A DNA stretch of 40,000 bases from Phenylobacterium sp. (GTDB taxonomy: Bacteria; Pseudomonadota; Alphaproteobacteria; Caulobacterales; Caulobacteraceae), in assembly GCF_041691455.1 (NCBI RefSeq), contig NZ_JBEPUO010000007.1, positions 97,951 to 137,950 on the forward strand, written 5' to 3'. The translations under genes were made by a program, and so were the position numbers. The first letter of the stretch is position 1, and every line of letters starts with the position of its first letter. A model generated the notes under the pieces. The model was not told where the DNA came from. It searched no databases and saw only the letters and a program-made list of their open reading frames with translations. Of the stretch, positions 10,874 to 28,317 are shown in pieces.

Positions 10874-11115
10874 GGCCGCCCTCCCGCAGTTCGATGTCGC
10901 CGGTTCATTGGATCGGCGCAAGCCGTGCCGGGTGGACCCCTTGCCCCGGCGGTGTAGAAGACCCGCCCGCTGTCGAATCGCGGCAGAATTTCTGAAGCAC
11001 GCGGCAATAACTGTGCGCTCTTCCGCGAATCAAATGCGTGGGAAACTGCAGAGGATCGAGGGCTTCGGAACAGATATAACTGTCGGCCCCTATCGACGGA
11101 GACAACGCAGAGATC

Positions 11116-12030
11116 ATGACGGCGACCGTCATCACCATGTGCAGCAACCGCAAGCGAGGCGACCCCGCCGCCGACCTGTCGGCCGCAGGGCTTGCCCGAG
11201 GAACCGCGGACGCCGTGGCGGCGGTCTGGGGGCGACGACTGGTCCAAGCCCCCTGCGCGCTGACCGCCCGCCAACTGTATGGCGGCCGTGGCTTTCGGGA
11301 AGCGGAAGCCGCCGCCGAGGCTCAGGGCGGGGCGTTTTTGGTGGTGTCGGCCGGCCTCGGCCTGGTCGCTGCGGATGCGGCGGTCCCGGCCTACGGCCTG
11401 ACCCTGCTGGCCAGCCACGCGGATGGCATCTTGGGAAAGATCGACGACGACGAGGCCTCGGCCTGGTGGCGCGCCCTGACGTCCGTATCCCCCTTCCACA
11501 GCCCCGACATTCCGGGACGCGGGCTCATTTTGGCGGCGCTCTCGGCCCCCTACATGGCGATGGTGGCCGACGACTGGGCGGGGTGGCCCGCGGAGCGGTT
11601 CGCGCGGCTGCGAGTATTCAGTAAGTCCCCGCCGGTCGGCGCGGCGGCCGCGCTCGCGCCGGCGTGGATGCCTTACGACGACCGACTGGACGCCATCGGT
11701 CCGGGACACGCGGGGACGCAGGCCGACTTCGCCCAGCGCGCACTCCGGCACTTTGCGGTCACGTTCACGACGTCCAGCCGCGGCGCACCATCCGACGCCG
11801 CGGCCGTGCGGGCCGGGCTGCAGGGCCTGACCGAGCGCGAACGCCCGGAACGGAAGCGCCTTGACGATGCTGACCTGCTCGCGCTGATTTCCGCGGAGTG
11901 GGACGCAGCCGGGGGGCGGTCGGGGGCCATGCTGCGACGGCTGCGCGACGACCTGCACATCGCCTGTGAACAGTCCCGGCTGAAGACACTGTTCAAGACG
12001 GTGGCCGCGTCCAGAGGGTCAGCGTCATGA
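11116..12030 (+). CDS. dpdC: DpdC-like protein (YaaA/DUF328-like); predicted preQ0-DNA to amido-deazaguanine (ADG) conversion
   Basis: 304 aa. The pattern VITMCSNRK / ARQLYGGRGF / LVVSAGLGLVAADAAVPAYGLTL parallels the YaaA motifs ISPAK / Y.G / LSGLYGVLRPLD..PYRLEM. It is the first gene of the operon, and its stop overlaps the dpdB start (ATGA). The assignment rests on pattern plus context. Confidence 0.55.
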   Translation: MTATVITMCSNRKRGDPAADLSAAGLARGTADAVAAVWGRRLVQAPCALTARQLYGGRGFREAEAAAEAQGGAFLVVSAGLGLVAADAAVPAYGLTLLASHADGILGKIDDDEASAWWRALTSVSPFHSPDIPGRGLILAALSAPYMAMVADDWAGWPAERFARLRVFSKSPPVGAAAALAPAWMPYDDRLDAIGPGHAGTQADFAQRALRHFAVTFTTSSRGAPSDAAAVRAGLQGLTERERPERKRLDDADLLALISAEWDAAGGRSGAMLRRLRDDLHIACEQSRLKTLFKTVAASRGSAS

Positions 12031-13130
12031 CCCGGGGTGAGCAGGTCATCGTGCGGGCGCTTCGAACGCGCCAGGCCACGTCGATCGACGTCTATGAATT
12101 CTTCATCCGCGGCGCCCAGGTCGCGCAGATCGCCGACATCTCGCGGCTGCGGCGCGGCGACGGCGAGCTCGAAGGGTTCCAGCGGCGGGAGATCAAGTCC
12201 CACGTGGCGGAGATCGCCGAGTTCCTCGCCCAGGGGCCCGTGCTGTTCCCCAACGCGATCATCCTGGCCCTGTCGCCCGAGGTCCGCTTCGAGCAGTCCC
12301 GCGGCCCCAAGATCGGCGACGACGCGGTGATCGCCGGTAAACTCTCTCTGCCACTGCGGCCGGAAGGCCAACGCGCCGCCTGGATTGTCGACGGCCAGCA
12401 GCGCTCGCTGGCGCTCGCCAAGGCGAAGGACTGCGACCTCCTGGTGCCGGTGGTGGCGTTCGTTTCCGCCGATGTGGCGGTGCAGCGGGAGCAGTTCATT
12501 CTGGTGAACAAGGCGCGGCCGTTGCCTCCGCGCCTGATCGACGAGCTCCTGCCGGAGATGACCCTGGCCCTCCCCCGGGACTTGAAGGCCCGGCAGGTGC
12601 CGAGCGCCCTGTGCAGCGCCCTGCACGACGATCCGAAGTCGCCATTCCATGGCCTGATCAAACGCGGCTCCGAACCGGGCGCGCCCACCGCCGTCGTCAC
12701 CGACCGGGTGCTGATCGACACGCTGGTGGGCAATCTGCGCGCCGGTGGCGCACTGGGGGCCTACCGCGCCGGCGACGGACTTGAGCCGCTGCACGAAGCG
12801 CTCTGCACCTACTGGCAGGCGGTTCGCGAGGCCTTCCCGGACGCTTGGGGGCGGCCTGCGGGCGACAGCCGGCTGATGCACTCCGCCGGGATCCGCGCCA
12901 TGGGCGCGCTGATGGACCCGGTCTGGACCCGCGCCGACGCTACCGCCGATCCGGCGTCGCATGTGCGGGAGTCCCTGGCGCGCCTGGCCCCCTATTGTCG
13001 CTGGACCGAGGGGGTCTGGGGCGACTTGGGGTGGGGCTGGAACGACCTTCAGGCGACCTCAAGACACATCAAGGGCCTCACCGAATATCTGTTGCAGCTC
13101 GACCGCAGCCTCGCGCGGCCTTCGCGATGA
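12027..13130 (+). CDS. dpdB: DGQHR-domain (DndB/ParB-like) protein, DpdB
   Basis: 367 aa. Motifs: WIVDGQQRSLAL (DGQHR motif), GFQRREIKSHVAEIAEFL, LFPNAIILAL, QFILVNKARPLP. ATGA overlaps occur with both neighbouring genes. Confidence 0.8.
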   Translation: MTRGEQVIVRALRTRQATSIDVYEFFIRGAQVAQIADISRLRRGDGELEGFQRREIKSHVAEIAEFLAQGPVLFPNAIILALSPEVRFEQSRGPKIGDDAVIAGKLSLPLRPEGQRAAWIVDGQQRSLALAKAKDCDLLVPVVAFVSADVAVQREQFILVNKARPLPPRLIDELLPEMTLALPRDLKARQVPSALCSALHDDPKSPFHGLIKRGSEPGAPTAVVTDRVLIDTLVGNLRAGGALGAYRAGDGLEPLHEALCTYWQAVREAFPDAWGRPAGDSRLMHSAGIRAMGALMDPVWTRADATADPASHVRESLARLAPYCRWTEGVWGDLGWGWNDLQATSRHIKGLTEYLLQLDRSLARPSR

Positions 13131-14416
13131 AGTTCGTGTTCGCCGACAGCCTCGACGTGGTCGATCCGGGATACGACTTCCTCAACGACCGGCATTCCCC
13201 GGGGCGCAAGCCCTACTGGGACGACGCCTATCCGCACGAGATCCTCGGCTACGCCCCCTACGACGGCATCCTGGTGTCCCGCGGCATCGTCGGCGACGGC
13301 CCGGTGAAGGGCAAATATTCCGACGCCCAGGCCATGCGCTTCAAGCGGGTGGGCGCCCGCACCTTCCTGCGGCTCGACAAGCCGGAGTTTGCGGGCCTCA
13401 GCCTGTTCGGCGACTGCGGCGCCTTCACCTACGTCAACGAGACCGTCCCGCCCTACACGCCGGCGGACACCGCCGAGTTCTACGACACTTGTGACTTCAC
13501 CCACGGCTGCTCCGTGGACCACATCATCTTCGACTTCCTTGAAGACGAACTGGGTCTGGCGGGCGCCACGCCGGAGGCGCAACGGCGCTTCGACCTGACG
13601 CTGGCCAACGCCGAAGCGTTCCTGACTGAGGCGCGCCAGTCCCATCGGTTCACGCCGCTCGGCGTGATCCAGGGCTGGTCGCCCGCCAGCATGGCTGAGG
13701 CCGCCCGCCGCTTGGTGGCCATGGGCTACGACTATCTAGCGATCGGCGGCATGGTGCCTCTTAAGATCAACCAGATCGCTCGGGCCCTCGCCGTCATCCG
13801 CGCGGCCATCCCCGCTGGGGTGCGCCTGCACATCCTGGGCTTCGGCAAGGCCAACGAGATGCTGGATGTCGCCGCCCATGACGTCACCAGCTTCGACACC
13901 ACCTCGCCGCTGATCCGCGCCTTCAAGGACGACAAACAGAACTACTGGGTTCCCCGCGCGGGCGGCGGGGTGGGCTACTACACGGCGATCCGGATCCCGC
14001 AGGCCATCGAGAACCCGCGGCTGCAACGTCTGGTGAAGCAAGGGGATTTCCGAGCGGAGGAACTGACTCGGCTTGAAGGTCTGTCCCTCGCGGCCCTGCG
14101 GGCGCACGACAAGGCGCCCCAGGACGTCGAGGCGGTGCTGGAGCCGATCCTGGAATACAACGCCATCCTGGCCACCGGCCGTCCGTTCGAAGACGTCCGG
14201 CAGCACCCCACGATGCAGAAACTAGCGGTTCGCTACCGCGAGACCCTCAGGGACCGGCCCTGGACAAAATGTCCTTGCCCCATTTGCCGTGACGCCGGCG
14301 TAGAGGTGATGATCTTCCGCGCCAGCAACCGCAACAAGCGGCGCGGCATCCACAATCTGGGGATCTTCAAGACCGTCCTTGACGGTTTGCCCGCAACTTC
14401 GGACGACGCTGCATGA
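13127..14416 (+). CDS. dpdA: DpdA, tRNA-guanine-transglycosylase-superfamily DNA 7-deazaguanine transglycosylase
   Basis: 429 aa from the ATG at 13127 (ATGA overlap). The track ORF 12845..14416 has an unsupported 5' extension that overlaps dpdB. The C-terminal WTKCPCPICRD...GIHNL gives the CxCxxC...H zinc site of the TGT superfamily. It is embedded between DGQHR proteins and queDC. Confidence 0.85.
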   Translation: MKFVFADSLDVVDPGYDFLNDRHSPGRKPYWDDAYPHEILGYAPYDGILVSRGIVGDGPVKGKYSDAQAMRFKRVGARTFLRLDKPEFAGLSLFGDCGAFTYVNETVPPYTPADTAEFYDTCDFTHGCSVDHIIFDFLEDELGLAGATPEAQRRFDLTLANAEAFLTEARQSHRFTPLGVIQGWSPASMAEAARRLVAMGYDYLAIGGMVPLKINQIARALAVIRAAIPAGVRLHILGFGKANEMLDVAAHDVTSFDTTSPLIRAFKDDKQNYWVPRAGGGVGYYTAIRIPQAIENPRLQRLVKQGDFRAEELTRLEGLSLAALRAHDKAPQDVEAVLEPILEYNAILATGRPFEDVRQHPTMQKLAVRYRETLRDRPWTKCPCPICRDAGVEVMIFRASNRNKRRGIHNLGIFKTVLDGLPATSDDAA

Positions 14417-15528
14417 GTTCCCTCACCTTCTTCGCCACGCGGGCCCGCCAGAGCGTCGAGCACGAGGTGCTGACCTTCGCCGCCACGGCCGAGCAGGTGT
14501 TGAGCTTCGCCCAGATCGACCGCATCGGCCGCGACGCGCAAGGCGAACTGCAAGGCTTCCAGCGACCGCAGATCGCCCACCACATCCGGGAGATCCGGGA
14601 TTATCTGGAAAAGCCGGACGCCGTGCTGCCCAACGCGATCGTGATCGCGTTCACGGAGGGCGTCGTCTTTAAGGAGACCCAGCCTGGCATCTGCAAGGTG
14701 ACCATCGACATAACCGATGGCCCCCGTGGCTTGGTGGTTGATGGCCAGCAGCGGCTCTCGGCGCTCAGCCAGGTAAACCGGCCCGACTTCCAACTGTTCG
14801 TCTCGTTGCTGATTTGTCGGGACGACATGGAATTGCGCCGCCAGTTTGTGCTGATCAACAACACCCGGCCCTTGCCTAAGTCGCTGATCTACGAGCTGCT
14901 GCCGACCGTGGACGGCCTTCCCGACCGCATGGAGAGCCGCTCGACGGCGGCGACCCTGACGGAACGTCTGAACCGAAGCGAGAGCTCGTCGCTGAAGGGC
15001 CAGATCAGCCAGCACACCAATCCGGACGGCGCGATCAAGGACACGGTTTTCCAGAGGGCCATGATGACCTCGCTGAGCGACGGGGTCCTTCGGGAGTTGA
15101 TCGATCTGCCCGGCGGAGAGGCCAAGTGCGTCAAGCTGGTGAGCGAGTTCTTCAAGGCGGTCCAGAACACCTTCCCCGAGGAATGGTGGGGTCAAACCGC
15201 GAGTTCCTCGCGTCTTCTCGGCGGCGCCGGCATCCAGTCCATGGCGTATGTGATGGACGACTTGGCCCACGGTGGCGCGCGGACTTGGCGGGAGTTCGCC
15301 GAGGGCCTGGAGTGCCTCAAGGGCAAGACCGCCTGGACCGCAGGCTCCTGGGACTTTGGCGGGGGCGATGTCCGCCACTGGCACGCGATCAACGTGGTCA
15401 ATCGCGACGTGGTGATGATCACCAACTATCTGCAGACCCTGGTGCGGCGCGACCAGCGCGCGCGCCGAAGCGGAGACCCCGCGCCGGCGCCGCTCATGGA
15501 GCGGCTGCTTTCACCGAACGACTCGTGA
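14413..15528 (+). CDS. second DGQHR-domain (DndB/DpdB-like) paralogue
   Basis: 371 aa. It is clearly paralogous to 12027-13130: GELQGFQRPQIAHHIREIRDYL, VLPNAIVIAF, LVVDGQQRLSAL, QFVLINNTRPLPKSLIYELLP. An ATGA overlap joins it to the dpdA stop. Confidence 0.8.
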   Translation: MSSLTFFATRARQSVEHEVLTFAATAEQVLSFAQIDRIGRDAQGELQGFQRPQIAHHIREIRDYLEKPDAVLPNAIVIAFTEGVVFKETQPGICKVTIDITDGPRGLVVDGQQRLSALSQVNRPDFQLFVSLLICRDDMELRRQFVLINNTRPLPKSLIYELLPTVDGLPDRMESRSTAATLTERLNRSESSSLKGQISQHTNPDGAIKDTVFQRAMMTSLSDGVLRELIDLPGGEAKCVKLVSEFFKAVQNTFPEEWWGQTASSSRLLGGAGIQSMAYVMDDLAHGGARTWREFAEGLECLKGKTAWTAGSWDFGGGDVRHWHAINVVNRDVVMITNYLQTLVRRDQRARRSGDPAPAPLMERLLSPNDS

Positions 15529-15547: not shown

Positions 15548-15919
15548 ATGTATGAACTGACCAAGCAATTCCGCTTCGATGCGGCCCACACCCTCCTCCG
15601 CGACGTCGAAGCGGACGGGAGCCGGCGCATTCATGGGCATTCCTATCGCGCCGAGGTGACCCTGCGTGGGGCGCCCGACCCGGCCAGCGGCATGATCATC
15701 GATACGCGGATCCTGGCCGACAAGCTGGAAGAGACCCGCTGCGCCTTGGACCATCGCTTCCTGGACGAGATCAACGATCTCGGTCCCGGCACGATGGAAA
15801 ACCTCTGCAGCTTCATCTGGCGCCGCCTCGAGCCCGACATTCCCAGCCTGCACAGCGTCACCGTCCTGAGGGATTCCACCGCCGATCGCGTCACCTACTA
15901 CGGTGAGAGCCCGGCGTGA
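15548..15919 (+). CDS. queD: 6-carboxy-5,6,7,8-tetrahydropterin synthase QueD
   Basis: 123 aa. FRFDAAHTL...[12 protein letters not shown]...GMIIDTRIL is typical of the QueD/PTPS family. Confidence 0.9.
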
Positions 15920-16623
15920 GCGGCGCCCTAGTGCTGTTCTCCGGCGGCCAGGACTCCGCGACCTGCCTGGCCTGGGCCCTGACCCGCTTCGAGCGGGTCG
16001 AGACCATCGGCTTCGACTACCGCCAGCGGCATCGCGCGGAACTCACCGCTCGCAGCGAATTCCGGGCCGACCTGGCCCGCGCGTTTCCGGACTGGGGCGT
16101 CAAGCTGGGCGACGACCACATGCTGGACCTGGGCGTCCTCGCCGAGGTCAGCGATACGGCCCTGACCCGGGACATGGCGATCGCCACCGCCGCCTCCGGC
16201 CTGCCCAACACCTTCGTGCCCGGCCGCAACCTGCTGTTCCTGACCTTCGCCGGCGCCGTCGCCTACCGCCGCGACCTCAAGCACATCGTCACCGGCGTCT
16301 GCGAGACCGACTACTCGGGCTATCCGGACTGCCGGGACGACACCATCAAGGCCCTGCAGGTCGCCCTTAACCTCGGCATGGAGCGGCGCTTCGTCCTCGA
16401 GACCCCGCTCATGTGGATCGACAAGGCTGCCACCTGGGAGATGGCCCGCCAACTCGGCGGCCTGCGCCTCGTGGACCTGGTCCGCGACCGGACGCTCACC
16501 TGCTACGAGGGCGACACCACCCACGAGCACGCCTGGGGCCGCGGTTGCGGCGTCTGCCCGGCCTGCGATCTTCGCGCGAAAGGCTATGTCGCCTGGCGGC
16601 GTATGGAGTCGGTTCAGGCCTGA
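15916..16623 (+). CDS. queC: 7-cyano-7-deazaguanine (preQ0) synthase QueC
   Basis: 235 aa. It has the PP-loop [18 protein letters not shown] and the C-terminal Cys cluster CYEG...[11 protein letters not shown]. The GTG start overlaps the queD stop (GTGA). Confidence 0.92.
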
Positions 16624-16625
16624 AC
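16612..16625. repeat. perfect 14-bp palindrome GTTCAGGCCTGAAC containing the stop codons of both convergent genes (queC and the dpdD-like gene)
   Basis: Read directly. On each strand the palindrome reads GTT CAG GCC TGA, so both proteins end in V-Q-A-stop. The two coding regions overlap by 10 bp (16614-16623). Confidence 0.9.
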
Positions 16626-18695
16626 GGCGGCTAGGGCGGTTTCCGCCCATTCCTCCACGGCTCGGACGATACTGCTCGCCCCTTTGCCCGCCGCATAGAC
16701 CAGGGGCCGCTCGCCCCGCTTGCCCTTGAGAAATTCCGTGGCCGCGTGTTTAGCGGACGCCCAGACCACGACCACCAGGTCCGATCGCGACGCCATGGCC
16801 GCCAGCGCCGCGCTGCCGCCGCGGTCGTGATTGAGATCGACGCTGACGTTGGGCGCCGCCCGGGTCAGCAGAGCCTGAGCCTGCCGGGCGGCCGGCTCCG
16901 TGAGGGTATAGATTCCGACCGTCTTGCCGCCGAGTACCTGGGCGATGGCGGTAACGTCGGGAGCGGCCTGGGCGCCGCTCTCCGCGACCAGCCCCGCATC
17001 TTCGGCCAGTGCCGCCAGGGCCACGCGCTGGCCGTCCGAGAGGCGTGCGGCTAGGCCTTGCAGCACGGAGACGACATTGACGGTGAAGTTCTGGAGGCGC
17101 GCCGCATCGACGGGCGACACCGCGCGCGCCGTATCGACGACGTCCAGCACGTCGTAGGCGGACGCCCGGCTTACCGCCTCGACGCACACGGTTTCGGCGG
17201 CGTCGAGCGCATCGCGATAGTCGGCCGAACTCAGGCCGCTGCGCAGAGCGCCGTCCAGAAGCGCCGAGGTGGAGCGCAACAAGGCGTCGCCGCGGCGCGC
17301 CGCGAACGCCATCCGCACCAGCAGCGCGAGATAGACGGATCGATAGGCCTCGCGCGGCCATTGCGGATCGCCCTGAGCCCACTGCACGAGGAAGGGCATG
17401 GCCTCCCCCAGGCGCTCTTCGGCGAGCCCCTCCGGAATGTTAGCGATCTGGTCGGCCAGCCGGAAAGCCGCCGCCGGATCCGCAGCCCCCGCCGGCAGAC
17501 GCCAGGCCGTCGCACCCAGCCGCGCACTTTCGAGCGCATCGAAGGTCTCGTCTCCGAGCCGCGTCAGCCAGGCCGCCCAGTCCTGCGGCGGCGCGATGTC
17601 GCCCGCCCTGGCACGCACTTCCTCCCATAGAGCCCGGAACATCGGGCGTTCGAGGAGACGGCCCTGCGCCGGCAGGTCCAGGGCGCGCATGGCGTCCTGG
17701 AGGGCGGCATCGGCATCGGGGTCGCCCTCCGCCGGGCTGCTGGCCACCACGAGAAAGGCGGTCTGTGCACGTTGTAGCGGGTCCTGCGGCGCCGGCGCAG
17801 CGTCCGGCGCCCTCGCGGGCGCAACGTCGGCCTGAACGGCGGCCGGGGCCTCCGGGGCCGGCGCGGCGTTCGAAACCAGGACGCGCAGCCGTTCCACCGC
17901 GTCGGCGGCCGGGTTCGGCGCACGGGCCAGCAGCGACGCCACGAACGGAAAGGCCTCGTCGTCGGCGAGCTCGTCGGGGGTCCGCTCCCGCCCGTCTTCC
18001 GGATCGAAAGCGGCGCACCAGTAGATGGCTTCCAGCAACACCTCGGCCGTGGCGGGCGAAGGTCCCGAGAGCGCCAGGCTCTCGAAGCGGTCGTGCCAGC
18101 GGATCGCCGTCCAGTCCCCGGCGACTGCGAGGATCTGCATCTCCAGTTGGGTGAGGTTGATGGCGTCCAGGCGGAGTTCCGACCTCAGCCGCCCGTGAAT
18201 GCGCCAGGCGTCCGCTACGTCGCCGCCGTTCAGGGCGTCCTGCAGTCCCCCCAGGAGCCGCGACGTGGGTTCCGGACGCGACAAGGTGAGGACGGGGGCC
18301 GTCGCCAGAAGGGTCTGCAGCCGGCTCAGCGCCCGGATGACCGCCAGATCGGACTGAGGCTCCAGCCCCGGGCGGAGTCGGGCGACCGCGCTGGCGCCGC
18401 TCGCGAAAAGGATCTGCGCGAGCGGGTCGGCCGTGGGAACGCTCAACGGAACGCCGTGGAAATCCGTCAGGGTCGGACCGGAGAAAGCCAGCAACAGCGG
18501 CTGCAGCTTGCGCCACTCGGACGGAGAGCCCGCGACGGCATAGACGCAGAAGCCGCCATCGGCCTGGCGCGCCGGCAGCAGGCCGCCGGGGAAGCTCTCC
18601 TGGCTAAGCGTGGCCGCCAGGTCGCCGGCGCCGGCGGGCAGCGCGGCCCAGTCCGCCGCCGCGCCGAAAGCCGCAAGATCCAGGGTCAGCGCCAC
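16614..18695 (-). CDS. dpdD: DpdD-like protein (last gene of the restriction array), with a C-terminal DUF2325-like Rossmann-type module
   Basis: 693 aa. The GTG start overlaps the dpdK stop by 10 nt. Most of the protein has no motif I recognise. The C-terminus [11 protein letters not shown]...[22 protein letters not shown]...[14 protein letters not shown] resembles the DUF2325 pattern. The name is assigned by elimination, size and context. Confidence 0.5.
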
Positions 18696-19213
18696 GTGAG
18701 GTGACTCCCCCAGCGTTCGGTCAGGGCCAGCCGCCGCATCGCCGCCGCCTGCGGGTCGGCCCGCAGGAGCACGTGCTCGTCGCTCGTGGTGAGGCCGCTG
18801 AGCGTGAAGTTCATCGAACCGCCGAACACATAGTCCTCGCCGACCAGGGTCTTCTCGTGCGCGTCCGGCGAAATCGCCAGACCGAGCCGCCCGTCGGCGC
18901 GGGCCTGCGCCTCGCGCAGCGTCCGGAGGAAATAAGCGTTGTGGTCGACCTCGCGCACGACGACCGCCACCCGTGCGCCGCGTTGGGCGACGGCTTCGAG
19001 CATCTGGGTCAGCCGGATGGAGCCGGCGGGCCAGTCGGGCCGCACCGCGCTGAACGCCCGGGCGCCGTTGTCGACGATCTCCACGTCGCTGATCCAGGCC
19101 GAGAGCACCCAGAGCTCTGCGCTGGGCCGGAGAAGCTCCGTCAGAAAGAGGGTTTGCAGGGCGTCGCGGATGGCTCGGCTCTGCCAGGGGCCCGTGAAGT
19201 CGCGGCTCGTCAT
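18686..19213 (-). CDS. dpdK: single-HKD phospholipase-D-family nuclease, DpdK-like
   Basis: 175 aa from the ATG at 19213 (TGATG junction with the dpdJ stop). HKD motif: HEKTLVGEDYVFGGSMNFT (HxK...D...GSxN). Above 19213, the 940-aa track ORF 18686..21508 is an alternate-frame shadow of dpdJ. Confidence 0.8.
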   Translation of the reverse strand: MTSRDFTGPWQSRAIRDALQTLFLTELLRPSAELWVLSAWISDVEIVDNGARAFSAVRPDWPAGSIRLTQMLEAVAQRGARVAVVVREVDHNAYFLRTLREAQARADGRLGLAISPDAHEKTLVGEDYVFGGSMNFTLSGLTTSDEHVLLRADPQAAAMRRLALTERWGSHLTWR

Positions 19214-22200
19214 CAGATCTGTTCCCGCAAGACGAGCGTCGCGACGATCTGGGTCTCGTCCTTGGCGATCCGTTCGAGGACCGGGAACAACTGCAGGTGT
19301 CCCACGTGGATGGGCCGCACCAGGGTTGCGACCAGCGCCTCGCCCAGCCGATCGCGACGGGCCAAGGGCGCGCTGAGCCGCCCGACGCCCTCCTGTGCGA
19401 GCGTGGCGGCGAGGCGCTCCCACCAGTCGTCGTCGGTCACCGGAATGGCGGCGCCCCCGCCCTCGAGCAGCAGCGCCCGGACCAGCGCCGGGTCGGCCGG
19501 CAGGTCGCCGCGGAACGGATTCCAGTTGGACAGGGCCTGACGATGCAGGGCCAGCGTCCGCGGCCAGAGCAGGGCGCCGAAGGCGAGCGCCCGGTCGCCC
19601 GGCGGCGCCGCGGCCTCGAAGACGCCGGCCGCCAGCGCCAGATCGGCGGCGGTTTGATCTGCGGTCGCCAGCACCGCCGCCTCGCGGGGATCCAGTTCGA
19701 CGCCAAGCCGCGCTTCCGTCTCTTCCCAGAAGGCCAAGAGACGTCGGACGAGATCGTCGTGACGCGGCCCGATGCCGGGGGTCAGCATCCGGGCGCTCAA
19801 GGTCACCACGAAGGCGCGGGTCGTTTCCACGCCGTGGCGATCGAGTTCCAGCAGAAGGTCGGCGCGCGCCGCCGCCCGGGCCACATGGCCCAACTCGGCC
19901 CGGACGCGGGCGATCGCCTCCGCCACGGCCGGCTCCCGGGCCGCGAGCCCATAGGTCCTGGCCAGCGCCCCGGAGGCGACCTCGAGGTCGCTGGGTTCGA
20001 GCGCCGCCTCGATGCCCCGGTACAGAGCGCGGGGTTCGCCGGCGAAGCGATCGGCGATGGACTGCAGGACGCCGGCGCCGCCCAAGGTGGTTTCGGTAAG
20101 CCAGAGCGTCGCCCGGCGCGGATCGGCCGGGTCGGTTTCCAGATCGGCCAGGATCGCATCGGCGGCTGCCTGGCGCGGCGTTGCGGCGACCGCCGCCGTC
20201 AGCAAACCCTCCGCGAGCGTGCCCACCAGGGTGACGCGCAGATAGCGCGCCCGCTCCGGCCCCGCAGCGTCCAGGGCGGCGAGCAGGTTGGCGTGCAACC
20301 GGGCGCGCACGCTGCCGTCCCGGAGCGCTTCTTGCAGCCGCCCCTTCAGGCGTTCGAGCCGGTCCCGCAGCGGGCGCGTTGGGCCCGCATGGTCGGGCGC
20401 CGGGTCGTCGTCGTCGTCCTCCGCACCGAGAACGTCGGCCCGCTGAACGCCGAGCAGGATGTTCATGACGTCGTCGTAGTCCGCGAGCGAGCCGGCCTGA
20501 TCCACGGCGTCGGCGGCGCGCTGTAGCGTCTCGCCCCGGTCGAGCGCGCGCCTCGCGCAACACAGCAGATGGACCTGCCGCAGCCAGGTCTTCAGGAAGC
20601 CGTTGGTCTCGCGCGGGAACTGCCGGTCCTCCGCCGTCAGCCACCGATGCAGCGACGTGTGGAGCGTGCGTTGCAGGTGCGGTTCGAGCGGCGCCTCGGC
20701 CAGCGCCTCGGCCGGCGGAAGCCGAAGCCGCAAGGCCAGGCCGTCGGTCTCGAAATCGAAGCCCACCGCCGCCAGGGCGCCATCGCCGTCCCGGAAGGTG
20801 ATGTCGACGATCTGGTCGACGCCGCCCGGACGGCGCAGTTCGGCGCGGGCCTCGCTGGCGAAGCGGCTGACGCCGACGCTCGCCCGAAAGCGGTGCAGGT
20901 AGATGTCGGCGCCTTCGACGAAGCCCTGCCATGCGGTCCGGGCCGGCGGCGCGACCTGCACCGGTTCCCCGTGCGGCTGGAAGGCGCTGGACCACGAGAG
21001 GCGCGAATTGGAAGTGACGCCGACGACGCCGCGCGTCGCCTTGTCCAGCCGCAGGCGCCAGGGCCGGAACACCTGCGCCTCGATCCAGCCTCCGGCGCCC
21101 TCGCCGCGATGGGGGCCCAGAGGTTCGGAGGTCTCCGCGTAGGCGGCGACGTCCAGATCCCACTGGGTGATCCCCGCGGGGACCGGCGACCAGTGGGCCA
21201 GACCCCCGTAGGCGTCGCCGAACCGGCGTGTGACCCGCCCCGGCGCCAACTGCGCCAGTCCCTGCTGCAGCGCCAGGGTCTCGGTGACATCGGGATCGCC
21301 CTGCCGGTCGCCCGCGTGGACGATCTCGAGTTCGGGAAGGTTGAGGTCGGCGAACAGAGCGCTTGGCGCGAAGTCCGGCAGGGGGTGGTCGCGGATCCAG
21401 AGATCGTCCCGGGCCGCGCCGTTCGGCCAGGCCAGTCGCCAGTTGCGGTACATCCGCCGGCTCAGCGTCGGGATCACCTCCAGAAGCAGGGAGCGGGGCG
21501 GTTCCCACAGCAGGCTGGCCACCGCGGTGTCGTCCAGGCGCAGCGACGCCTTCAGATGGTCGGCGAGCGAGCGGCGCAGAGGACCGTCGGCGCGCAGCAC
21601 CTCCGACAGCAGGCGCGCGATGTGATCGCGCCAGGCGGCATCGTCCCAGGCCGGGCGGCTGGGCTGCGCCACAGTCTGCCAGGCGCTGCTGGTCGGTGTG
21701 CCGGGCGGGCGCGGCTGATCGGCAATCCAGTCCAGCAAGGCGAACGCGGCCTGCATGCGCAGCACATATTCGTTGCGGATCGGCAGGGACTGGGGCGGCA
21801 AGGTCGGTTCGAAAAGGTGCTCGGCCGCCTGGAACAACTGCCGGTCCCGGCCGTAGTCGGACAGGACCGTCAGCGTCAGCGGCCGCATCCGGCGGTCCCG
21901 CCCGGCGCGGCCGCGGCGCTGCAGGAAGGACGCGAAGTCCCGCGGCGCCTTGTGCTGCAGAACCGCGCCGACGCGACGGTCGTTGAAACCGACCTCCAGA
22001 GCCGATGTAGCGACGATGATATTGGCGGCGGCGTCGACGCCGGGGTCACGGGAGGTGGTGCGCGCGACGGTCAAGCGGTCGGACAGCGCGCGCCCTATCA
22101 CTTCGGGTAGTCTCCAGCGCTGGCCGTCCGCATCGCGGGCCCGGCGATCGGCATCGGTTTCCACGAGGCCGGGGGGCGCCTGACCGCGCATGGCCGCGAG

Positions 22201-23739
22201 CGGCAGACGCGCCGGATCGGGGTTGCCGAAGCGATCGAAGGCTTCCGCGTCCCGCAGGTCGTCGAACAGGCGATGCGTCACGTCCAGGTCGTCGGTGAAG
22301 GCGAACATCCGTTCGCCGAAGCGGAACTGCGACGGTCCGCCGGGCGGATCGAGAATGCGGCCGGCGAGCATGGCGGTCTGAATGGACGTCGAGAGCAGCG
22401 AGGTCCCGGCGGCGGGATCGCCCCGCAGCGCGATCTGATACTCGCGGCCCTCCTCGACATATTCGTCGTCTTGCGGCGTCACCTCCGCGACCGCGCCGGG
22501 CGGCAGGCCCGTCAGTTCGGCGAAGAAAGTCGCAGCGTCCTGCAGGGTGGCCGAAAGTCCGACCCAGGCGATGGGACCGCCCGCCAGCCGCCGCCACCGC
22601 CGCAAGGTCAGGGCCGCCTGGGCCCCGGCGACGCCGGTGTAGGTGTGCGCCTCGTCCAGCAGCAGGAACTCTGGCCGTCGGTTCGCAGCGGTCCGCACGC
22701 CGAACAGTCCGCGGCGGCGCTGGTCCGACAGGGACCGGTTGAGCATCTCGGTCGTCGTGAACAGCAGGTCGGGCGGCTCGCGGCGCAGGCGGTCGCGCGT
22801 CAGGACGAGCACCTCCGGGTCCGTGACCGACCCGCAGGACCGCGCGCATTGCAGGCGCTCGACGCCCTGAGCGATGTCTTCCGAACTCCACACCATGTCC
22901 CCGCCGCATCCGCAGCGCAGGTAGGGACAGACATAGGCCGTGCGCCGTCGCCGCCAGACCCGGGCGACCGCTTCCTCCCGGCCGGCGGTGGGCGTGTCGC
23001 CATAGAACGCGCCGAGCCGGATCGGCCGGCGGCCGGCCGCGGCCAGGGTGTCCACCAGGGCCACGGCGTTGCCGTAGGCCTCGCTCAGTTGATCCTTCAG
23101 CAACTCGTTGCGCGGATAGATGGCGATGGCTTTGGTCCAGAAGTCTCCCGTACGGACCCGTTCGGCGAGGCGCGTGAACACCGGCAGATAGAAGGCCAGG
23201 GTCTTGCCCGACCCGGTGCCGGCGCCGACGATCACCCCGACGTCCTGGCCCGGCGTCGGGAGCAGGCGATCCGCCGCCCGCAACTGAAAGGCCGCCAGCG
23301 CACCCGGGGCGATCGCCCGCCACACCGCCCGCTGAAGCGCTGTCAGATCCGCGGCGTCGGCTGCGGCGCCAGAGTCCTGGTCCCATCGCGGATAACGCCG
23401 CGCCCGCACGTCGAGACGGTAGTCGGCGACCAGCGGCGGCGCGCCGCGCCAGGATTCGCCGGCGAACGTCTGCCGCATCCGGGCCAGCAACCGAACCGTC
23501 TCGCCAAACCGGCTTCGGTAGCGGGGACCCCGCCCCGGGACGTCGAACTCCACGACGAGCGCGGCTTCGACCAGCGCTTCGAGACCGTCCTCGGCCTCTC
23601 CGGGGAAATGCGCTTCGGCGATCTCCAACGCTTCGTCGCGTCCCAGCGAAGCGCTGACGTCGCCCCACCGCAGCGAAAGCAGTTCGACGTCCTCGATCGC
23701 GTTCAGCAAGGCATCGTGCGCGGCGCCGAGAGCGGCCAT
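19213..23739 (-). CDS. dpdJ: very large DEAH-box SF2 helicase, DpdJ-like
   Basis: 1508 aa from the ATG at 23739 (TGATG junction with the upstream stop). Motifs: GAGTGSGKTLAFYLP (I), LLDEAHTY (II), LSATL (III), ATSALEVGFND...LQRRGRAGR (V/VI). A Cys cluster, CPYLRCGCGG...CARSCG, sits between motifs I and II. The roughly 750-aa C-terminal region has no motif I recognise. Confidence 0.8.
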   Translation of the reverse strand: MAALGAAHDALLNAIEDVELLSLRWGDVSASLGRDEALEIAEAHFPGEAEDGLEALVEAALVVEFDVPGRGPRYRSRFGETVRLLARMRQTFAGESWRGAPPLVADYRLDVRARRYPRWDQDSGAAADAADLTALQRAVWRAIAPGALAAFQLRAADRLLPTPGQDVGVIVGAGTGSGKTLAFYLPVFTRLAERVRTGDFWTKAIAIYPRNELLKDQLSEAYGNAVALVDTLAAAGRRPIRLGAFYGDTPTAGREEAVARVWRRRRTAYVCPYLRCGCGGDMVWSSEDIAQGVERLQCARSCGSVTDPEVLVLTRDRLRREPPDLLFTTTEMLNRSLSDQRRRGLFGVRTAANRRPEFLLLDEAHTYTGVAGAQAALTLRRWRRLAGGPIAWVGLSATLQDAATFFAELTGLPPGAVAEVTPQDDEYVEEGREYQIALRGDPAAGTSLLSTSIQTAMLAGRILDPPGGPSQFRFGERMFAFTDDLDVTHRLFDDLRDAEAFDRFGNPDPARLPLAAMRGQAPPGLVETDADRRARDADGQRWRLPEVIGRALSDRLTVARTTSRDPGVDAAANIIVATSALEVGFNDRRVGAVLQHKAPRDFASFLQRRGRAGRDRRMRPLTLTVLSDYGRDRQLFQAAEHLFEPTLPPQSLPIRNEYVLRMQAAFALLDWIADQPRPPGTPTSSAWQTVAQPSRPAWDDAAWRDHIARLLSEVLRADGPLRRSLADHLKASLRLDDTAVASLLWEPPRSLLLEVIPTLSRRMYRNWRLAWPNGAARDDLWIRDHPLPDFAPSALFADLNLPELEIVHAGDRQGDPDVTETLALQQGLAQLAPGRVTRRFGDAYGGLAHWSPVPAGITQWDLDVAAYAETSEPLGPHRGEGAGGWIEAQVFRPWRLRLDKATRGVVGVTSNSRLSWSSAFQPHGEPVQVAPPARTAWQGFVEGADIYLHRFRASVGVSRFASEARAELRRPGGVDQIVDITFRDGDGALAAVGFDFETDGLALRLRLPPAEALAEAPLEPHLQRTLHTSLHRWLTAEDRQFPRETNGFLKTWLRQVHLLCCARRALDRGETLQRAADAVDQAGSLADYDDVMNILLGVQRADVLGAEDDDDDPAPDHAGPTRPLRDRLERLKGRLQEALRDGSVRARLHANLLAALDAAGPERARYLRVTLVGTLAEGLLTAAVAATPRQAAADAILADLETDPADPRRATLWLTETTLGGAGVLQSIADRFAGEPRALYRGIEAALEPSDLEVASGALARTYGLAAREPAVAEAIARVRAELGHVARAAARADLLLELDRHGVETTRAFVVTLSARMLTPGIGPRHDDLVRRLLAFWEETEARLGVELDPREAAVLATADQTAADLALAAGVFEAAAPPGDRALAFGALLWPRTLALHRQALSNWNPFRGDLPADPALVRALLLEGGGAAIPVTDDDWWERLAATLAQEGVGRLSAPLARRDRLGEALVATLVRPIHVGHLQLFPVLERIAKDETQIVATLVLREQI

Positions 23740-24449
23740 CAGCGGGTCCGGATTCCGAACGCGCCGCCGAGCCCGTTCGCCGTGAGCCACGTCTGCACCG
23801 GCTCGTCCAGCCGCGCCAGATCTGCGCCGCCGTCGCTGCTGGCGTCGCGCAGGAACCGCGCCACGGACGGCGGCAGGCTCTCGGCGTCGAGCGTTCGCCA
23901 AGCGGTGGCGCAAGCCTCCGCAAGGTCGTCTAGCGTCTTGAAGATGGCCGGATCGATGGGAAGTTGGTCCGCCAGCGCGAGGGCGTCCCGCCTCAGTCGA
24001 CGCACCCGTTCCACGCGGGCCTGGAGCGCCGAGATCTGCGACAGGTGCTGCAGAAGATCTTCCCCGACGCTCGGGACTTTGCTGCGGACATGGGCCGACC
24101 AGGCCGCCGCCGACGCGGCTTCGACGGCCGCCGACAGGAGGTTGAGGGGGCCGATCGTTTTCGGAGACAGTTCGTTTGACGCCGCTGCGGCCGGATCGCT
24201 CGCGAGATCGGCCTTGAACGTCCTGAGGTAGAACGCAATGCCACCGGCCGACTTCGTGTCGAGGGCGACGGTCAGGCCTTCCGAGACGAGCAGGGTCCGG
24301 CGACCGAGTGCCAGCCGCAGCTTGGCGAGCGCCGCCTCCAACTGACCGGTCCGGGTCTCGACGGCCTGAACCTGGTGGGCGGAACTGCGCAGGGCGCCGA
24401 GTTCCGTGGTGTCCGATACGAAGCTGGCGGACCGCTCGAGCAGGCTCAC
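23739..24449 (-). CDS. dpdI: DpdI-like hypothetical protein
   Basis: 236 aa from the GTG at 24449 (GTGA overlap with the dpdH stop). Composition changes from Arg/Gly/Pro-rich, in the overlapping 5' part of track ORF 23739..24998, to balanced and Leu/Ala/Ser-rich. No motif recognised. The name comes from position and size only. Confidence 0.5.
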   Translation of the reverse strand: MSLLERSASFVSDTTELGALRSSAHQVQAVETRTGQLEAALAKLRLALGRRTLLVSEGLTVALDTKSAGGIAFYLRTFKADLASDPAAAASNELSPKTIGPLNLLSAAVEAASAAAWSAHVRSKVPSVGEDLLQHLSQISALQARVERVRRLRRDALALADQLPIDPAIFKTLDDLAEACATAWRTLDAESLPPSVARFLRDASSDGGADLARLDEPVQTWLTANGLGGAFGIRTR

Positions 24450-27400
24450 GCTTCGGTCTCCAGCGGCTCGAGTTCGCTCACGAGATCGTCGACCACCTGG
24501 CTCAGGCGGCCGATCTTTTCGCTGATCTGATCGACGCCGGCGTCCGTCCGTTTCTGGGCGATCTCCGTCTCGGCCGCGTCGAGGAACGCGGTCCAGGCCG
24601 TCACCAGCCTGGACGCCGCCTCGACGGCCTCCCGACGCCCGCGGGCATAAGTGGGCAGTTCGGCCTCCGGCGGATCGGCGGTGGCCACCACGCGGGCCGA
24701 GCGCACCGCGGCGTCGAACTGAACCTGCGCGAGCTCGGCGCAACTGCGCTCCAGCGCCGGAGCCGGCGCATGGACGCCCTCGGCGATGGCCGCCGCCGCC
24801 GCGGCTCTCGCGGCCTGCAGAATGTCCTGACGGCCGGTTTCGGGGCCGAACGCCGCATCGATCTCCGCAAGCCACGCCACCCGCGCGTCGCGCTCCGCCG
24901 CAAGGGCGGGCGGCAGGTCTCTCAGGACCAGAGCGTAGAGGTCGCCGATCTCCGCATAGAGATCCGGCAGCGGAGCGGGCGTCCGGGACAGGGCCCACTT
25001 CTGCCGGCGCAGTCGACGCGCCGCGTCGCGAACCGGCCGCGGATCGATCGGACGGCCCTGGCGTCCGCCCTTGGAGGCGGAGACGTGCGCCCTGAGCAGG
25101 GATTGCAGGTTCGCGCGCTTCGTCCGGAGGCGCGTGTAGACCGCGCTCAACTTGCCATCGGCGAACGGACTCTCGTCGGGCATCGGCCGGAAGATCGCCT
25201 CGATCATCTTTTCGTCGGTGATCGGTCCCGTCGCCAGACCCCCGGCCAGGGCGGACCCGACCAACAACAGGTCTACGGCGCCGGCGACCGGATCCCAGGT
25301 CTTCGGATTTCCGGCCAGGCCCTTGAGTTGACGGGAAACTTCATTTGCGCAGGCCGTCGCCAGCTCGCTGAGCGCCGCCAGGCCTTCCAGCCCGAAGGCC
25401 TGGTTCCAATCGCCCGTCTTCTGGTGTTTCAGCAGCACCTCGAGCGCCAGGGCCGTGGCGGTGAAGCCGGCGGCGTCCCTCCGGAGCGGCAGCTCGAGCC
25501 GGATGGCGCCGCCGACGCCCCCGGTGGTGGCCTGGTTGGCGAACTGGATGCTCTGGTTCCGGAACGGTCGATTGCCGGTGCTCGCGGTCGCGCTGGCGAA
25601 GGTGGTCGGCAGCAGTCCCAGTTCGTCCCAGTCGATGGAGCGCTCGATCAACGGGAACAGCCCGTTGCGCAGCGTCTGGGCGAGACTCTGATCGAGACGT
25701 CCGCCATCGATCCAGGCTCCGAGCTGCACGGCCACGGGATCGCGAGCCGCGACTTTCGGACCGGCGCTGGAAGACGTCCCGTCATCCGATGCAGCGGCTT
25801 CCGCCGACGAAATGTCGTCTTCGATCGGTTCGGGTCCGGATTCGGCGAACCCGCTGAGCGGCGGGAGGCCAAACGCCTGCAGCGCCGGATCCGCCGCACC
25901 GTTCAACCGGCCGGCGTTCCAGAGTTGGTAGAAGGCCAGATACTGATCGAAGCGAGGGCCGGCTTTTTCCTGCAGGCGTCCGCGCTCGAAGCTGAGGATG
26001 TCCGCGCCCCCCAACTGGTTGAGCAGGGCGAGAGACGGAAAGCTTCCCGTCTTGAGATTGGCCGCCTCTTCCATCAGGACCGGTTTCAGGACGCGGCGCT
26101 GGAAACGCCGCGGGTTGAACCGCTCGCCATCGTCGGCCCCCGCCCGACGCGCGAAATCCGGCAGGGCGGCGGCGGTGAACGGATAGAGCCCCATACCCTC
26201 GCGGCTGGCGCCGAACGCGGCGAAGCAGTCCGGCCGCCATTCGCAGCCCTCGCAAGCATTGGGAAGCTCGCGGGCCGACAGCCCGAAGGCTTGGTCCAGG
26301 CCGGTCTTGCCGACCCGGACGGCGTTGAGGTAGCGGGCCGTGAACGCCGCGAGATCCGGACGCGGAGGGGCGTCCTCCAGATCGACGATGGCGTCCATGC
26401 GCGTGCGCACGGTGTCGGGCAGGTCGCGGAAGCGGCCGCTGGTGCAGGCCAGCGCCCACCGCACATTGCAGAGATTCTCGCCGCCCTGGACCAGCAGGGC
26501 CGACAGCATCGCCAGGTCGTAGCCCTGCAAGCGCGCGAACTCTTCGAACAGAATGACCAGTTCGCGGCCTTCCGCCTTCAGGCGGGTGCGGATCCGGCCC
26601 ATGAGCTCGCCGAGCAGGTCGCCGGAAAAGTTGAGCGCCCGCGCGATCGCGCGGTTGAGGTTGCGGTTGATCACCGTCAGCACCGAGGGGATCGTCCGGT
26701 CGGCGTCGTAAAGATAGATCTCGATCGCGTCGCGCGCCGGCTTCGAGCACTTTAGCAGATCGAGGCCGCTGAGCGGCAGGCTGTCCTTGTCGAACAGGAT
26801 CTGCTCGTCCAGCCGCTTGCCCTCGCGCGCGGAAAACAGGCGATCCACCAGCTGGGACACGACCTCGCCGTCGGCCAGAAACTTGGTCGGCCGCAGATGC
26901 GGATCGCGGAGGAGATCGGGGAGCGCGGCAAGGAGCACCTGCTCCAGTTCCGGGTCCATCCCCGGCTGCGGCTGCGGCGTATCCTCTTCGATAGCCTGCG
27001 CCAGGCTGTCGAGCAGGACGGATTTCTGGGCCTCCGGGGTCGCGAGCGTGGTGCCCGCCCGCTGCAGATCCTCCAGGTAACGGGCGCGCTCTTCGGGCGG
27101 CAGGCGCTGGATCAGCTTTTCGAGGACCGCGCGGAGATTGGTCTCCAGTCGCCGGATGGCCAGCACCTCGAAGCCCGACCGCAGTTCGACCAGCTGGCGC
27201 ATGCGGTGAATGACATGCGACTTGCCGGCGCCGGACGGGCCGAGCACCGCCAGCTGATAGTGTCCGCGAACCGGATCGAGGAACTGCTCGACCAGCTGCT
27301 CCGTGGACATCTCCCGGGCCGGCCCGGCATAGGGGTCGGTGACCCGCAGGGGCGTGGCGGTGTCCACCGCCCAGAACACCGGATCGGGAACGAAGTCCGC

Positions 27401-27457
27401 GTCGATATTGATGACGTCCGTGACGCGCTCGGGATCCCAGCAGACGACCTGTTTCAT
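24446..27457 (-). CDS. dpdH: large P-loop NTPase, DpdH-like
   Basis: 1003 aa. Walker A is AVLGPSGAGKSHVIHRM. A candidate Walker B, ELVILFEEFARLQG, lies about 240 aa downstream. ATGA overlap with the dpdG stop. Confidence 0.7.
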   Translation of the reverse strand: MKQVVCWDPERVTDVINIDADFVPDPVFWAVDTATPLRVTDPYAGPAREMSTEQLVEQFLDPVRGHYQLAVLGPSGAGKSHVIHRMRQLVELRSGFEVLAIRRLETNLRAVLEKLIQRLPPEERARYLEDLQRAGTTLATPEAQKSVLLDSLAQAIEEDTPQPQPGMDPELEQVLLAALPDLLRDPHLRPTKFLADGEVVSQLVDRLFSAREGKRLDEQILFDKDSLPLSGLDLLKCSKPARDAIEIYLYDADRTIPSVLTVINRNLNRAIARALNFSGDLLGELMGRIRTRLKAEGRELVILFEEFARLQGYDLAMLSALLVQGGENLCNVRWALACTSGRFRDLPDTVRTRMDAIVDLEDAPPRPDLAAFTARYLNAVRVGKTGLDQAFGLSARELPNACEGCEWRPDCFAAFGASREGMGLYPFTAAALPDFARRAGADDGERFNPRRFQRRVLKPVLMEEAANLKTGSFPSLALLNQLGGADILSFERGRLQEKAGPRFDQYLAFYQLWNAGRLNGAADPALQAFGLPPLSGFAESGPEPIEDDISSAEAAASDDGTSSSAGPKVAARDPVAVQLGAWIDGGRLDQSLAQTLRNGLFPLIERSIDWDELGLLPTTFASATASTGNRPFRNQSIQFANQATTGGVGGAIRLELPLRRDAAGFTATALALEVLLKHQKTGDWNQAFGLEGLAALSELATACANEVSRQLKGLAGNPKTWDPVAGAVDLLLVGSALAGGLATGPITDEKMIEAIFRPMPDESPFADGKLSAVYTRLRTKRANLQSLLRAHVSASKGGRQGRPIDPRPVRDAARRLRRQKWALSRTPAPLPDLYAEIGDLYALVLRDLPPALAAERDARVAWLAEIDAAFGPETGRQDILQAARAAAAAAIAEGVHAPAPALERSCAELAQVQFDAAVRSARVVATADPPEAELPTYARGRREAVEAASRLVTAWTAFLDAAETEIAQKRTDAGVDQISEKIGRLSQVVDDLVSELEPLETEA

Positions 27458-28317
27458 GCGGCCAGCCCCGGCCGCGCGACATGGCTCACCCGGCCGGCGT
27501 CCAGCAGACCTGGTACGAAGACCACCTCGGCGTCGTTGAGCATGTCGAAGGTCAGGACGCCCCGCTGTTTGGCGCGCTGCAGGGCCAGGGCCAGGGCCGG
27601 AGACGCCGCCCGGTCGGCGGATTCCAGACCGATCCGGTCCGCCACTTCGCGTCGTACGGCCCCGCCGTCGAACACAGGGCAGACCTTCGCCAGGTCGCTC
27701 ATGAACTTCCCGAGCGTGGCCTCGGCCCCCGGCGCCAGGACGCGATCAAGGCGCGCGAGCAGCGCCGCCGTCGGATCGGGCACGACGATCTCGTCCTTCA
27801 GGTTGAAGCGGGTGACGAACCCCAGGGTCCGGGCCCAGTAGACGGCCTGCTGAAAGCGGCTGTCGTTCGACATTCCGTAAGTGTCGCTCTGCCCGAGCTG
27901 ACGGAAGATCCGGGTGGTGGCGCCCGAGCCGCCCCACGGCAGGGCCTCCAGCGGATCCTGGCACAGGAACCAGGCGATGGCCCCCGCCATCCATCCCGAC
28001 GAAGGGCCGGCGCTATCGACCTGATCGACCATCCGGGAGGCGGCCACGTCCAGGAACGTCAGGCCCGGCTGGCGCACGGCTTCGGCCAGCCGCACCCGGT
28101 CCTCCTGCGCCTCGAATACGCCGAGATCCACACCGAGCCCGAGGCAGTCGCCCAAGGCGTTGTCTTCCCCGGGTTCGTCGCCCCGCGCCAGGGACGGCGG
28201 TCCCACCAGGGCCGCAAGCTTCTCGCGCTCCTCGCCCGGCTCTCCGGCCTCCGCCAGGATATCGAACAGGATCGTCATCCGGTGAGGGGTCGCGCCGACG
28301 GCGGTGATGGCCTTCAT
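27454..28317 (-). CDS. dpdG: DpdG-like hypothetical protein
   Basis: 287 aa. ATGA overlaps on both sides. Composition is balanced. No motif recognised. The name comes from position and size only. Confidence 0.5.
   Translation of the reverse strand: MKAITAVGATPHRMTILFDILAEAGEPGEEREKLAALVGPPSLARGDEPGEDNALGDCLGLGVDLGVFEAQEDRVRLAEAVRQPGLTFLDVAASRMVDQVDSAGPSSGWMAGAIAWFLCQDPLEALPWGGSGATTRIFRQLGQSDTYGMSNDSRFQQAVYWARTLGFVTRFNLKDEIVVPDPTAALLARLDRVLAPGAEATLGKFMSDLAKVCPVFDGGAVRREVADRIGLESADRAASPALALALQRAKQRGVLTFDMLNDAEVVFVPGLLDAGRVSHVARPGLAA

Follow-up and report, generated by a model that had tools for sequence, protein, structure and literature searches.

A Dpd restriction-modification island of Phenylobacterium with two conserved DpdB paralogues around dpdA

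Why does the DNA transglycosylase DpdA require an ATPase of the ParB family, and what are we to make of a locus that offers it two? All mechanistic work has been done on the Enterobacterial version of the Dpd (7-deazaguanine) system, which has one DpdB. A 40,000-nt stretch of Phenylobacterium sp. DNA (contig NZ_JBEPUO010000007.1, positions 97,951 to 137,950 of the forward strand; hereafter the window, to which all unprefixed coordinates refer) contains what its gene content indicates to be a complete Dpd restriction-modification island with a two-DpdB architecture. In it, dpdA lies between an upstream and a downstream gene of the DGQHR/DpdB family, which we call dpdB1 and dpdB2 and whose products we call B1 and B2. 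The window system is a variant of the known Dpd system, not a new kind. The two-DpdB layout is common and is standard for a large part of the dpd diversity sampled; by sequence comparison, B1 and B2 appear to represent two distinct orthologue groups, a separation that is new relative to earlier records.

The point of reference is the reconstituted Dpd system of Salmonella Montevideo, in which DpdA needs one homodimeric DpdB ATPase carrying a DGQQR motif, and in which the ATPase activity is stimulated by DpdA-DNA (Gedara et al. 2023, PMC10164549). An earlier sequence-only reading of the window had taken a single DpdB working with DpdA to be the described state, and the Montevideo work bears this out. 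The S. Montevideo/E. coli module (dpdC-dpdA-dpdB) shares with the window the DpdA, DpdB, DpdC-like and DpdD-K families, the DGQQR motif, nearby preQ0 genes and an overlap coupling of dpdA to a DpdB gene, and B2 stands at the position of its lone DpdB. The window differs in that a further DpdB paralogue, B1 (36-40% identical to B2 as well as to E. coli DpdB), stands between dpdC and dpdA, and in that queD and queC are joined into the modification operon. The biochemistry described so far belongs to the one-DpdB type only.

The modification genes occupy 11116-16623 of the plus strand as six closely packed genes, dpdC-dpdB1-dpdA-dpdB2-queD-queC. The first four are a dpdC-like gene (11116..12030, 304 residues), dpdB1 (12027..13130, 367 residues), dpdA for the DNA preQ0 transglycosylase (13127..14416, 429 residues; NCBIfam NF041059, 531.4 bits) and dpdB2 (14413..15528, 371 residues). 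Their three junctions read ATGA, at 12027-12030 (dpdC/B1), 13127-13130 (B1/dpdA) and 14413-14416 (dpdA/B2); both the gene order and the overlaps had been given by the sequence-only reading and can be read in the sequence.

The same reading had called the two DpdB genes clear paralogues, and they are. The alignment of B1 with B2 runs from end to end at 33% identity (BLASTP, E 1e-44; 31-40% across comparisons), and a profile-profile comparison with hhalign gives a probability of 100% (E 9e-54, 344 columns). The shared blocks that had been quoted for them, GEL(E/Q)GFQR, PNAI(I/V)(L/I)A, VDGQQR and QF(I/V)L(V/I)N..RPLP..LI.ELLP, are all found in the pairwise alignment. Both proteins match the DpdB equivalog model NF041060 over its full length and above its curated cut-off of 300 bits, B1 with 411.9 bits (residues 8-355 on profile positions 2-352) and B2 with 365.8 bits (5-340 on 2-352). 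Each is 100% identical to an NCBI record named 'DGQHR domain-containing protein DpdB [Phenylobacterium sp.]', and both adjoin dpdA through ATGA overlaps inside a dpd cluster. The VDGQQR block (residues 121-126 of B1 and 109-114 of B2) shows 95% conservation or more among 80 B1 orthologues and likewise among 80 B2 orthologues. A check of the ATPase residues, which the sequence-only reading had proposed, shows that both paralogues keep the NTPase motifs, including GFQR, DGQQR and QF.L.N..RPL. The DGQQR motif has been described as the counterpart of the GxxRxxA nucleotide-binding motif of ParB (PMC10164549).

Kinship with DndB is at the level of the superfamily. The Pfam DndB family PF14072 matches the pair with 47.4 and 51.5 bits (cut-off 29.1); TIGR04172, the second DGQHR protein of dnd clusters, gives 35.6 and 50.5 bits, far under its cut-off of 450. 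The DndB and TIGR04172 proteins belong, like B1 and B2, to the DGQHR/ParB-like superfamily and set a precedent for two such proteins in one DNA-modification locus (PMC3226654); unlike DpdB, DndB is a regulator and not an obligatory partner of the modifying enzyme (PMC5699537). No dndA, dndC, dndD or dndE gene was found among the large open reading frames (ORFs) of the window that were scanned.

AlphaFold2 models of the two proteins (mean predicted local distance difference test score, pLDDT, 82 for B1 and 90.5 for B2) both consist of a beta/alpha N-terminal domain and a helical C-terminal domain. The closest PDB structures to both models are ParB(-CDP), PadC, Noc, KorB, SspE and sulfiredoxin (Srx) (6sdk, 6ryk, 7ol9, 8qa8, 6jiv, 5k5d), as weak matches restricted to the N-terminal domain (E about 1e-2, template modelling score 0.2-0.5). 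A PDB sequence search with B1 gave no match, and no DpdB structure was found in the PDB. The CTPase clamps ParB, PadC, Noc and KorB, together with SspE, are the best structural matches, and a model of NTP-gated dimerisation has been borrowed from them for DpdB. They are homodimers. DpdB uses ATP and is without the SspE nuclease motif (PMC10164549).

The occurrence of the layout was surveyed with DpdA as a neutral anchor. The 80 genome loci obtained have a DpdA 59-74% identical to that of the window and come mostly from Alphaproteobacteria, with Massilia, Methylococcaceae, Verrucomicrobiaceae and Gemmatimonadaceae also represented. The order C-B1-A-B2 is intact in about 75 of them; queD-queC usually come next, often with space for a queE gene. 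B1 orthologues stand upstream of dpdA in about 78 genome loci as well as in metagenome loci. Three genome loci (L051, L062 and L080) end at contig edges, and B2 is broken by frameshifts in two loci from metagenome-assembled genomes (L001 and L047). In Novacetimonas maltaceti (L033) a 119-residue C-terminal remnant of B1 is left between dpdC and dpdA (L033:9645-10001) while B2 is intact; Azospirillum oryzae (L060) has dpdA-B2 without dpdC and without B1. When five deep-branching proteins of B1 type were used to seed a metagenome scan, it yielded 80 loci from a second cluster family, whose DpdA is only about 45% identical to that of the window. The order (queC-queD-)C-B1-A-DpdB was present in all 41 of these loci that had enough downstream sequence.

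The sequence-only reading read as if the duplication were rare, an emphasis that cannot be kept: to the two surveys just described come public annotation and published counts. RefSeq/PGAP (the NCBI Prokaryotic Genome Annotation Pipeline) already names two DpdB genes around dpdA on a plasmid of Caulobacter sp. S6, on plasmid B of Sinorhizobium americanum CCGM7 and on a plasmid of Bradyrhizobium sp. 41S5, in clusters which, like the window, have the order hypothetical (dpdC)-dpdB-dpdA-dpdB-que. According to the GATOR-GC survey (PMC12235509), dpdB has more extra copies than any other dpd gene, namely 801 across 2335 unique islands; the survey counts these copies without functional study. A common arrangement that had already been described was one of the outcomes that the sequence-only reading had named as a refutation, and it largely applies, although the arrangement has been counted and never studied. 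The functional gap which that reading saw is real: our literature search found no paper treating two DpdBs functionally. The plasmid records and the GATOR-GC survey name or count the copies, without separating clades, assigning orthology or testing function.

A single DpdB downstream of dpdA (dpdC-dpdA-dpdB), the E. coli type, was found in 161 of 5426 complete genomes and on an Enterobacter plasmid. Among the surveyed loci B1 never occurred without a downstream DpdB; the downstream type stood alone in the 161 E. coli genomes and in the N. maltaceti and A. oryzae loci.

Other arrangements were also seen. On an Acetobacter pasteurianus plasmid (L085) and on the megaplasmid of Methylorubrum extorquens AM1 (L087), dpdC-dpdA is present with no DpdB gene within ±6 kb; in a neighbour-joining tree their DpdA proteins (54% and 47% identical to that of the window, respectively) nest within the two-DpdB clade. 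Cyanobacterial and Paenibacillus plasmids likewise have no DpdB gene within ±6 kb of a fusion gene whose 'DpdA' product of about 690 residues consists of an N-terminal DUF6884 (DpdC-like) part and a TGT domain (L083:5158-7227, L088:1074-3149, L089:5077-7221). Behind this fusion gene come another TGT-like gene, a short one, and DEAD/DEAH helicases, and these clusters look like a DpdB-independent Dpd variant. Some metagenome clusters have a third DGQHR/DpdB-like gene near C-B1-A-DpdB (L102:3940-5145, minus strand; L163:3672-4784, minus; L165:94-1239, plus), which in L102 and L163 is on the strand opposite to the module.

Are both copies maintained? Taken as the median over 91 locus pairs, the ratio of nonsynonymous to synonymous substitution rates (dN/dS; Nei-Gojobori method, NG86) was 0.059 for B1, 0.071 for dpdA, 0.096 for B2 and 0.21 for dpdC. 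With 80 orthologues of each copy aligned, the two clades have one and the same residue, at 95% conservation or more, in 56 columns, among them GFQR, PN, VDGQQR, QF.L.N and L..LI.ELLP; conservation is confined to the B1 clade in another 46 columns and to the B2 clade in 47. About 120 positions per copy, every motif included, reach this level of conservation. By these measures both B1 and B2 are under strong purifying selection and neither is decaying, B1 being the more constrained of the two.

A redundant or decaying duplicate, with one copy dispensable and heading for loss, is accordingly hardly credible. It could draw on the B1 remnant of N. maltaceti, the absence of B1 from A. oryzae, the frameshift-split B2 of the two metagenome-assembled genomes and the single-copy Enterobacterial type. 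Against these stand the intact pair in most genome loci and its recurrence in the second family, with its distant DpdA; dN/dS values of 0.06-0.10, in line with dpdA; the conserved positions; and the identity of only 31-36% between the copies, because of which we regard their split as ancient and followed by long retention. The sequence-only reading had allowed for a decaying copy without its motifs, and the common conserved columns together with the dN/dS values rule this out; we consider the decaying duplicate effectively refuted.

The same data bear on the proposal, also made from the sequence alone, that one paralogue is a sequence-specificity or targeting subunit which chooses guanines for DpdA in the way of the specificity subunit of a restriction-modification enzyme. 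The DpdB family was first proposed to act in target recognition (PMC5699537), and in both cluster families the more basic protein is B1, with an isoelectric point of 8.4 against 7.5 for the downstream copy in one and of 9.4 against 6.4 in the other. A hypervariable segment was sought by windowed entropy in the B1 and B2 orthologues, and none was found in either: mean column entropy is 1.10 for both, and windowed values stay at or below about 1.9 bits. The purifying selection, strongest on B1, is contrary to the diversification that specificity subunits typically show. The proposal thus finds no support in these data; we rejected it as a leading explanation, and for either copy we consider it improbable.

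How the two copies relate to the characterised DpdB was approached through synteny and pairwise identities. An exhaustive DpdB-family profile search gave 2549 representatives (E<1e-3), of which the best 150, after clustering at 50%, were typed: 52 were of B1 type, 19 of B2 type and 79 unspecialised, the E. coli protein being among the last. In the metagenome family, the identity of the upstream copies is 48% with window B1, 35% with B2 and 41% with E. coli DpdB, whereas that of the downstream copies is 52% with E. coli DpdB and 40% with either window paralogue. For the downstream copy the three identities (window-E. coli 39%, metagenome-window 40%, metagenome-E. coli 52%) parallel those of DpdA for the same pairs (43%, 45% and 52%), and B2 has the same position, downstream of dpdA, as the lone DpdB of E. 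coli and Enterobacter. Because of this parallel and the shared position, we read B2 as the probable canonical orthologue of the characterised DpdB, co-diverged with dpdA. B1, which stands upstream of dpdA and falls into a clade of its own, does not behave as a canonical orthologue; it appears to be an ancient separate clade that exists only alongside a canonical DpdB.

The B1 clade was found on either side of the deepest split among the DpdA sequences sampled, which implies that the duplication is old. The simplest history is then a loss in the Enterobacterial lineage, and the Enterobacterial model system has probably lost B1. Neighbour-joining trees agree with this order. A tree of 121 DpdB-family sequences (200 bootstraps) recovers a B1 clade (50% bootstrap) and a B2 clade (58%), and an exclusive B1+B2 sister group receives 9%. 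Since deep support in this tree is weak, we argue the deep order from synteny and the parallel DpdA/DpdB identities.

What might two such proteins do for one DpdA? Our preferred reading is that B1 and B2 act jointly with DpdA in ATP-dependent preQ0 insertion, plausibly as a ParB-like heterodimeric clamp; we put its probability at roughly 0.45. Overlap-coupled translation would yield B1, B2 and DpdA in fixed proportion. B1 and B2 would jointly provide the ParB-like, ATP-dependent activity that DpdA requires for the exchange of guanine for preQ0 in DNA, most likely as a B1/B2 heterodimeric clamp in place of the Salmonella DpdB homodimer, to which the more basic B1 may add DNA contact. DpdC would afterwards turn the inserted base (dPreQ0) into dADG (2'-deoxy-7-amido-7-deazaguanosine). 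Paralogous heterodimers usually start from a homodimer. E. coli DpdB has 22 of the 46 B1-specific and 23 of the 47 B2-specific conserved residues, a symmetry that is expected if one ancestral homodimer diverged reciprocally.

Gene coupling speaks to the partners of B1. The 4-nt overlap of B1 with dpdA is present in 77 of 78 genome loci and in 48 of 53 metagenome loci, and that of dpdC with B1 in 64 of 75 loci; the corresponding dpdA/B2 overlap occurs in only 11 of 78, the others having short gaps or longer overlaps. B1 is thus more tightly coupled to dpdA than B2 is. Natural DpdA-DpdB fusions, found in at least six clusters at 50% identity (P0140, P0155, P0159, P0166, P0188 and P0247) and always with an unspecialised DpdB, support a physical A-B association. 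One B1-DpdA fusion (P0256) and one DpdC-B1 fusion (P0124, two contigs) were also found; both are singletons, which frameshifts at ATGA overlaps may have produced as artefacts.

Several of these facts weigh against joint action of B1 and B2. The rarity of the dpdA/B2 overlap is one, and the DpdC-B1 fusion, which hints that B1 might serve DpdC, is another. With complete NTPase motifs in both copies each could equally act as a homodimer, and N. maltaceti and A. oryzae, which keep dpdA-B2 without an intact B1, show that B1 can be lost, be their islands functional or not. The deep branching order comes from neighbour-joining only, with the weak bootstraps given above for the B1 and B2 clades. Finally, the roughly 80 B1/B2 pairs are closely related and too few for an analysis of co-variation; we infer the physical association of B1 with B2 and their joint action on DpdA.

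The complete motifs, together with the homodimeric state of the known DpdB, lend themselves to a different arrangement of two separate homodimers, in which B2 would be the ATPase partner of DpdA and B1 would have another role: loading or targeting of DpdC for the step from dPreQ0 to dADG, coupling to restriction, or DndB-like regulation of the operon. B1 does adjoin dpdC, with which it usually overlaps and is once fused; the related DndB is a regulator (PMC5699537), dnd clusters also hold DndB beside a second DGQHR protein (PMC3226654), and systems of the E. coli/Salmonella type function without B1. Yet the tightest coupling of B1 is to dpdA and not to dpdC, the B1-DpdA fusion exists too, and the doubt about frameshift artefacts applies to both singleton fusions. 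S. Montevideo DpdC is independent of DpdA/B in vitro (PMC10164549), and the constant company of a canonical DpdB would be unexpected if B1 were purely independent. We regard two homodimers as the main rival reading, possible if rather doubtful.

Joint action of B1 and B2 can be taken further. In the boldest form, the two-DpdB module would be ancestral and the most widespread one, B1 and B2 would be obligate partners in a heteromeric, ParB-like ATPase clamp that surrounds DNA for DpdA, and the Salmonella and E. coli systems would be reduced descendants from which B1 was lost; as a whole we hold this extension to be speculative and somewhat unlikely. A second, equally constrained and dpdA-coupled DpdB spans most of the Alphaproteobacteria sampled and a separate soil-metagenome clade, and may be ancestral. 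In that case, models based on a homodimeric DpdB may fail to carry over to two-DpdB systems. B1 and B2 would also constitute a natural asymmetric pair, with which nucleotide binding, DNA clamping and activation of DpdA could be separated genetically. The single name that annotation pipelines give to both genes hides what appear to be two distinct orthologue groups.

The dpdC assignment stands on weaker evidence than the dpdA and dpdB calls and is best treated as putative. DUF6884, named as the DpdC domain in the GATOR-GC paper (PMC12235509), matches the window protein with 25.3 bits, below the Pfam gathering threshold of 30; the E. coli protein in the DpdC position scores similarly low (23.5 bits). 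A profile of 77 DpdC-like proteins of the window type matches this E. coli protein in hhalign with 98.6% probability (E 5e-16, 254 columns).

The last two genes of the modification operon are assigned to preQ0 supply: queD, for 6-carboxytetrahydropterin synthase (15548..15919, plus strand; PF01242 95.8 bits, TIGR03367 71 bits), and queC, for 7-cyano-7-deazaguanine synthase (15916..16623, plus; TIGR00364 200.4 bits, PF06508 225.5 bits). A queE gene lies at 39027-39716 (plus; TIGR04508, 360 bits), about 23 kb from queD-queC and past the restriction genes. In most related loci a gap of the size of queE separates B2 from queD, and in two annotated plasmid relatives queE sits there.

The restriction set faces the modification operon from the opposite strand in the order dpdE-F-G-H-I-J-K-D. 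From its far end it comprises dpdE (SNF2-like; 30791..33994, NF041062, 899.4 bits), dpdF (RecQ-like helicase; 28314..30794, NF041063, 734.4 bits), dpdG (27454..28317, NF041064, 108.8 bits), dpdH (24446..27457, NF041065, 503.7 bits), a dpdI-like gene (23739..24449), dpdJ (helicase; 19213..23913, NF041067, 1564.6 bits), dpdK (PLD-like; 18686..19213, NF041068, 182.6 bits against a cut-off of 100; start taken from the translation) and dpdD (16614..18695, NF041061, 464.1 bits), all on the minus strand. Since the NF041067 match begins at residue 70, the true start of dpdJ is probably inside the ORF. The dpdI-like gene has a GTG start that overlaps the dpdH stop (GTGA). Its match to NF041066 is weak (29 bits against a cut-off of 150), and we therefore name it by its place, which, as in E. 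coli, is between dpdH and dpdJ; DpdI has diverged far more in the window than the rest of the Dpd set. The cut-offs of the respective NCBIfam models are exceeded by DpdA, B, D, E, F, G, H, J and K.

The 3' ends of queC (plus) and dpdD (minus) overlap convergently by 10 nt (16614-16623), which leaves no space for a terminator to separate the modification operon from the restriction operon. A promoter and terminator scan of 10600-16900 found no promoter-like site and no plus-strand terminator within the operon, and is uninformative at 65-70% GC.

The dpd island is flanked by a MobP1-family relaxase, two tandem ParB/RepB-like genes and a large serine recombinase (4325-5350, 34036-35852 and 35852-37453, all minus), which suggests that it is carried on an integrative/mobilisable or plasmid-derived element. 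Further upstream, an ORF of 1104 residues (905-4219, plus) encodes a helicase-like protein with weak matches to TIGR04095 (dnd-associated type III restriction res-subunit, 35 bits), UvrB and RadD. Upstream of the dpd operon as it is, this ORF may represent another defence gene. An ORF of 407 residues at 8806-10029 (plus), also upstream of the operon, has a faint match to an MntA-like nucleotidyltransferase (20 bits).

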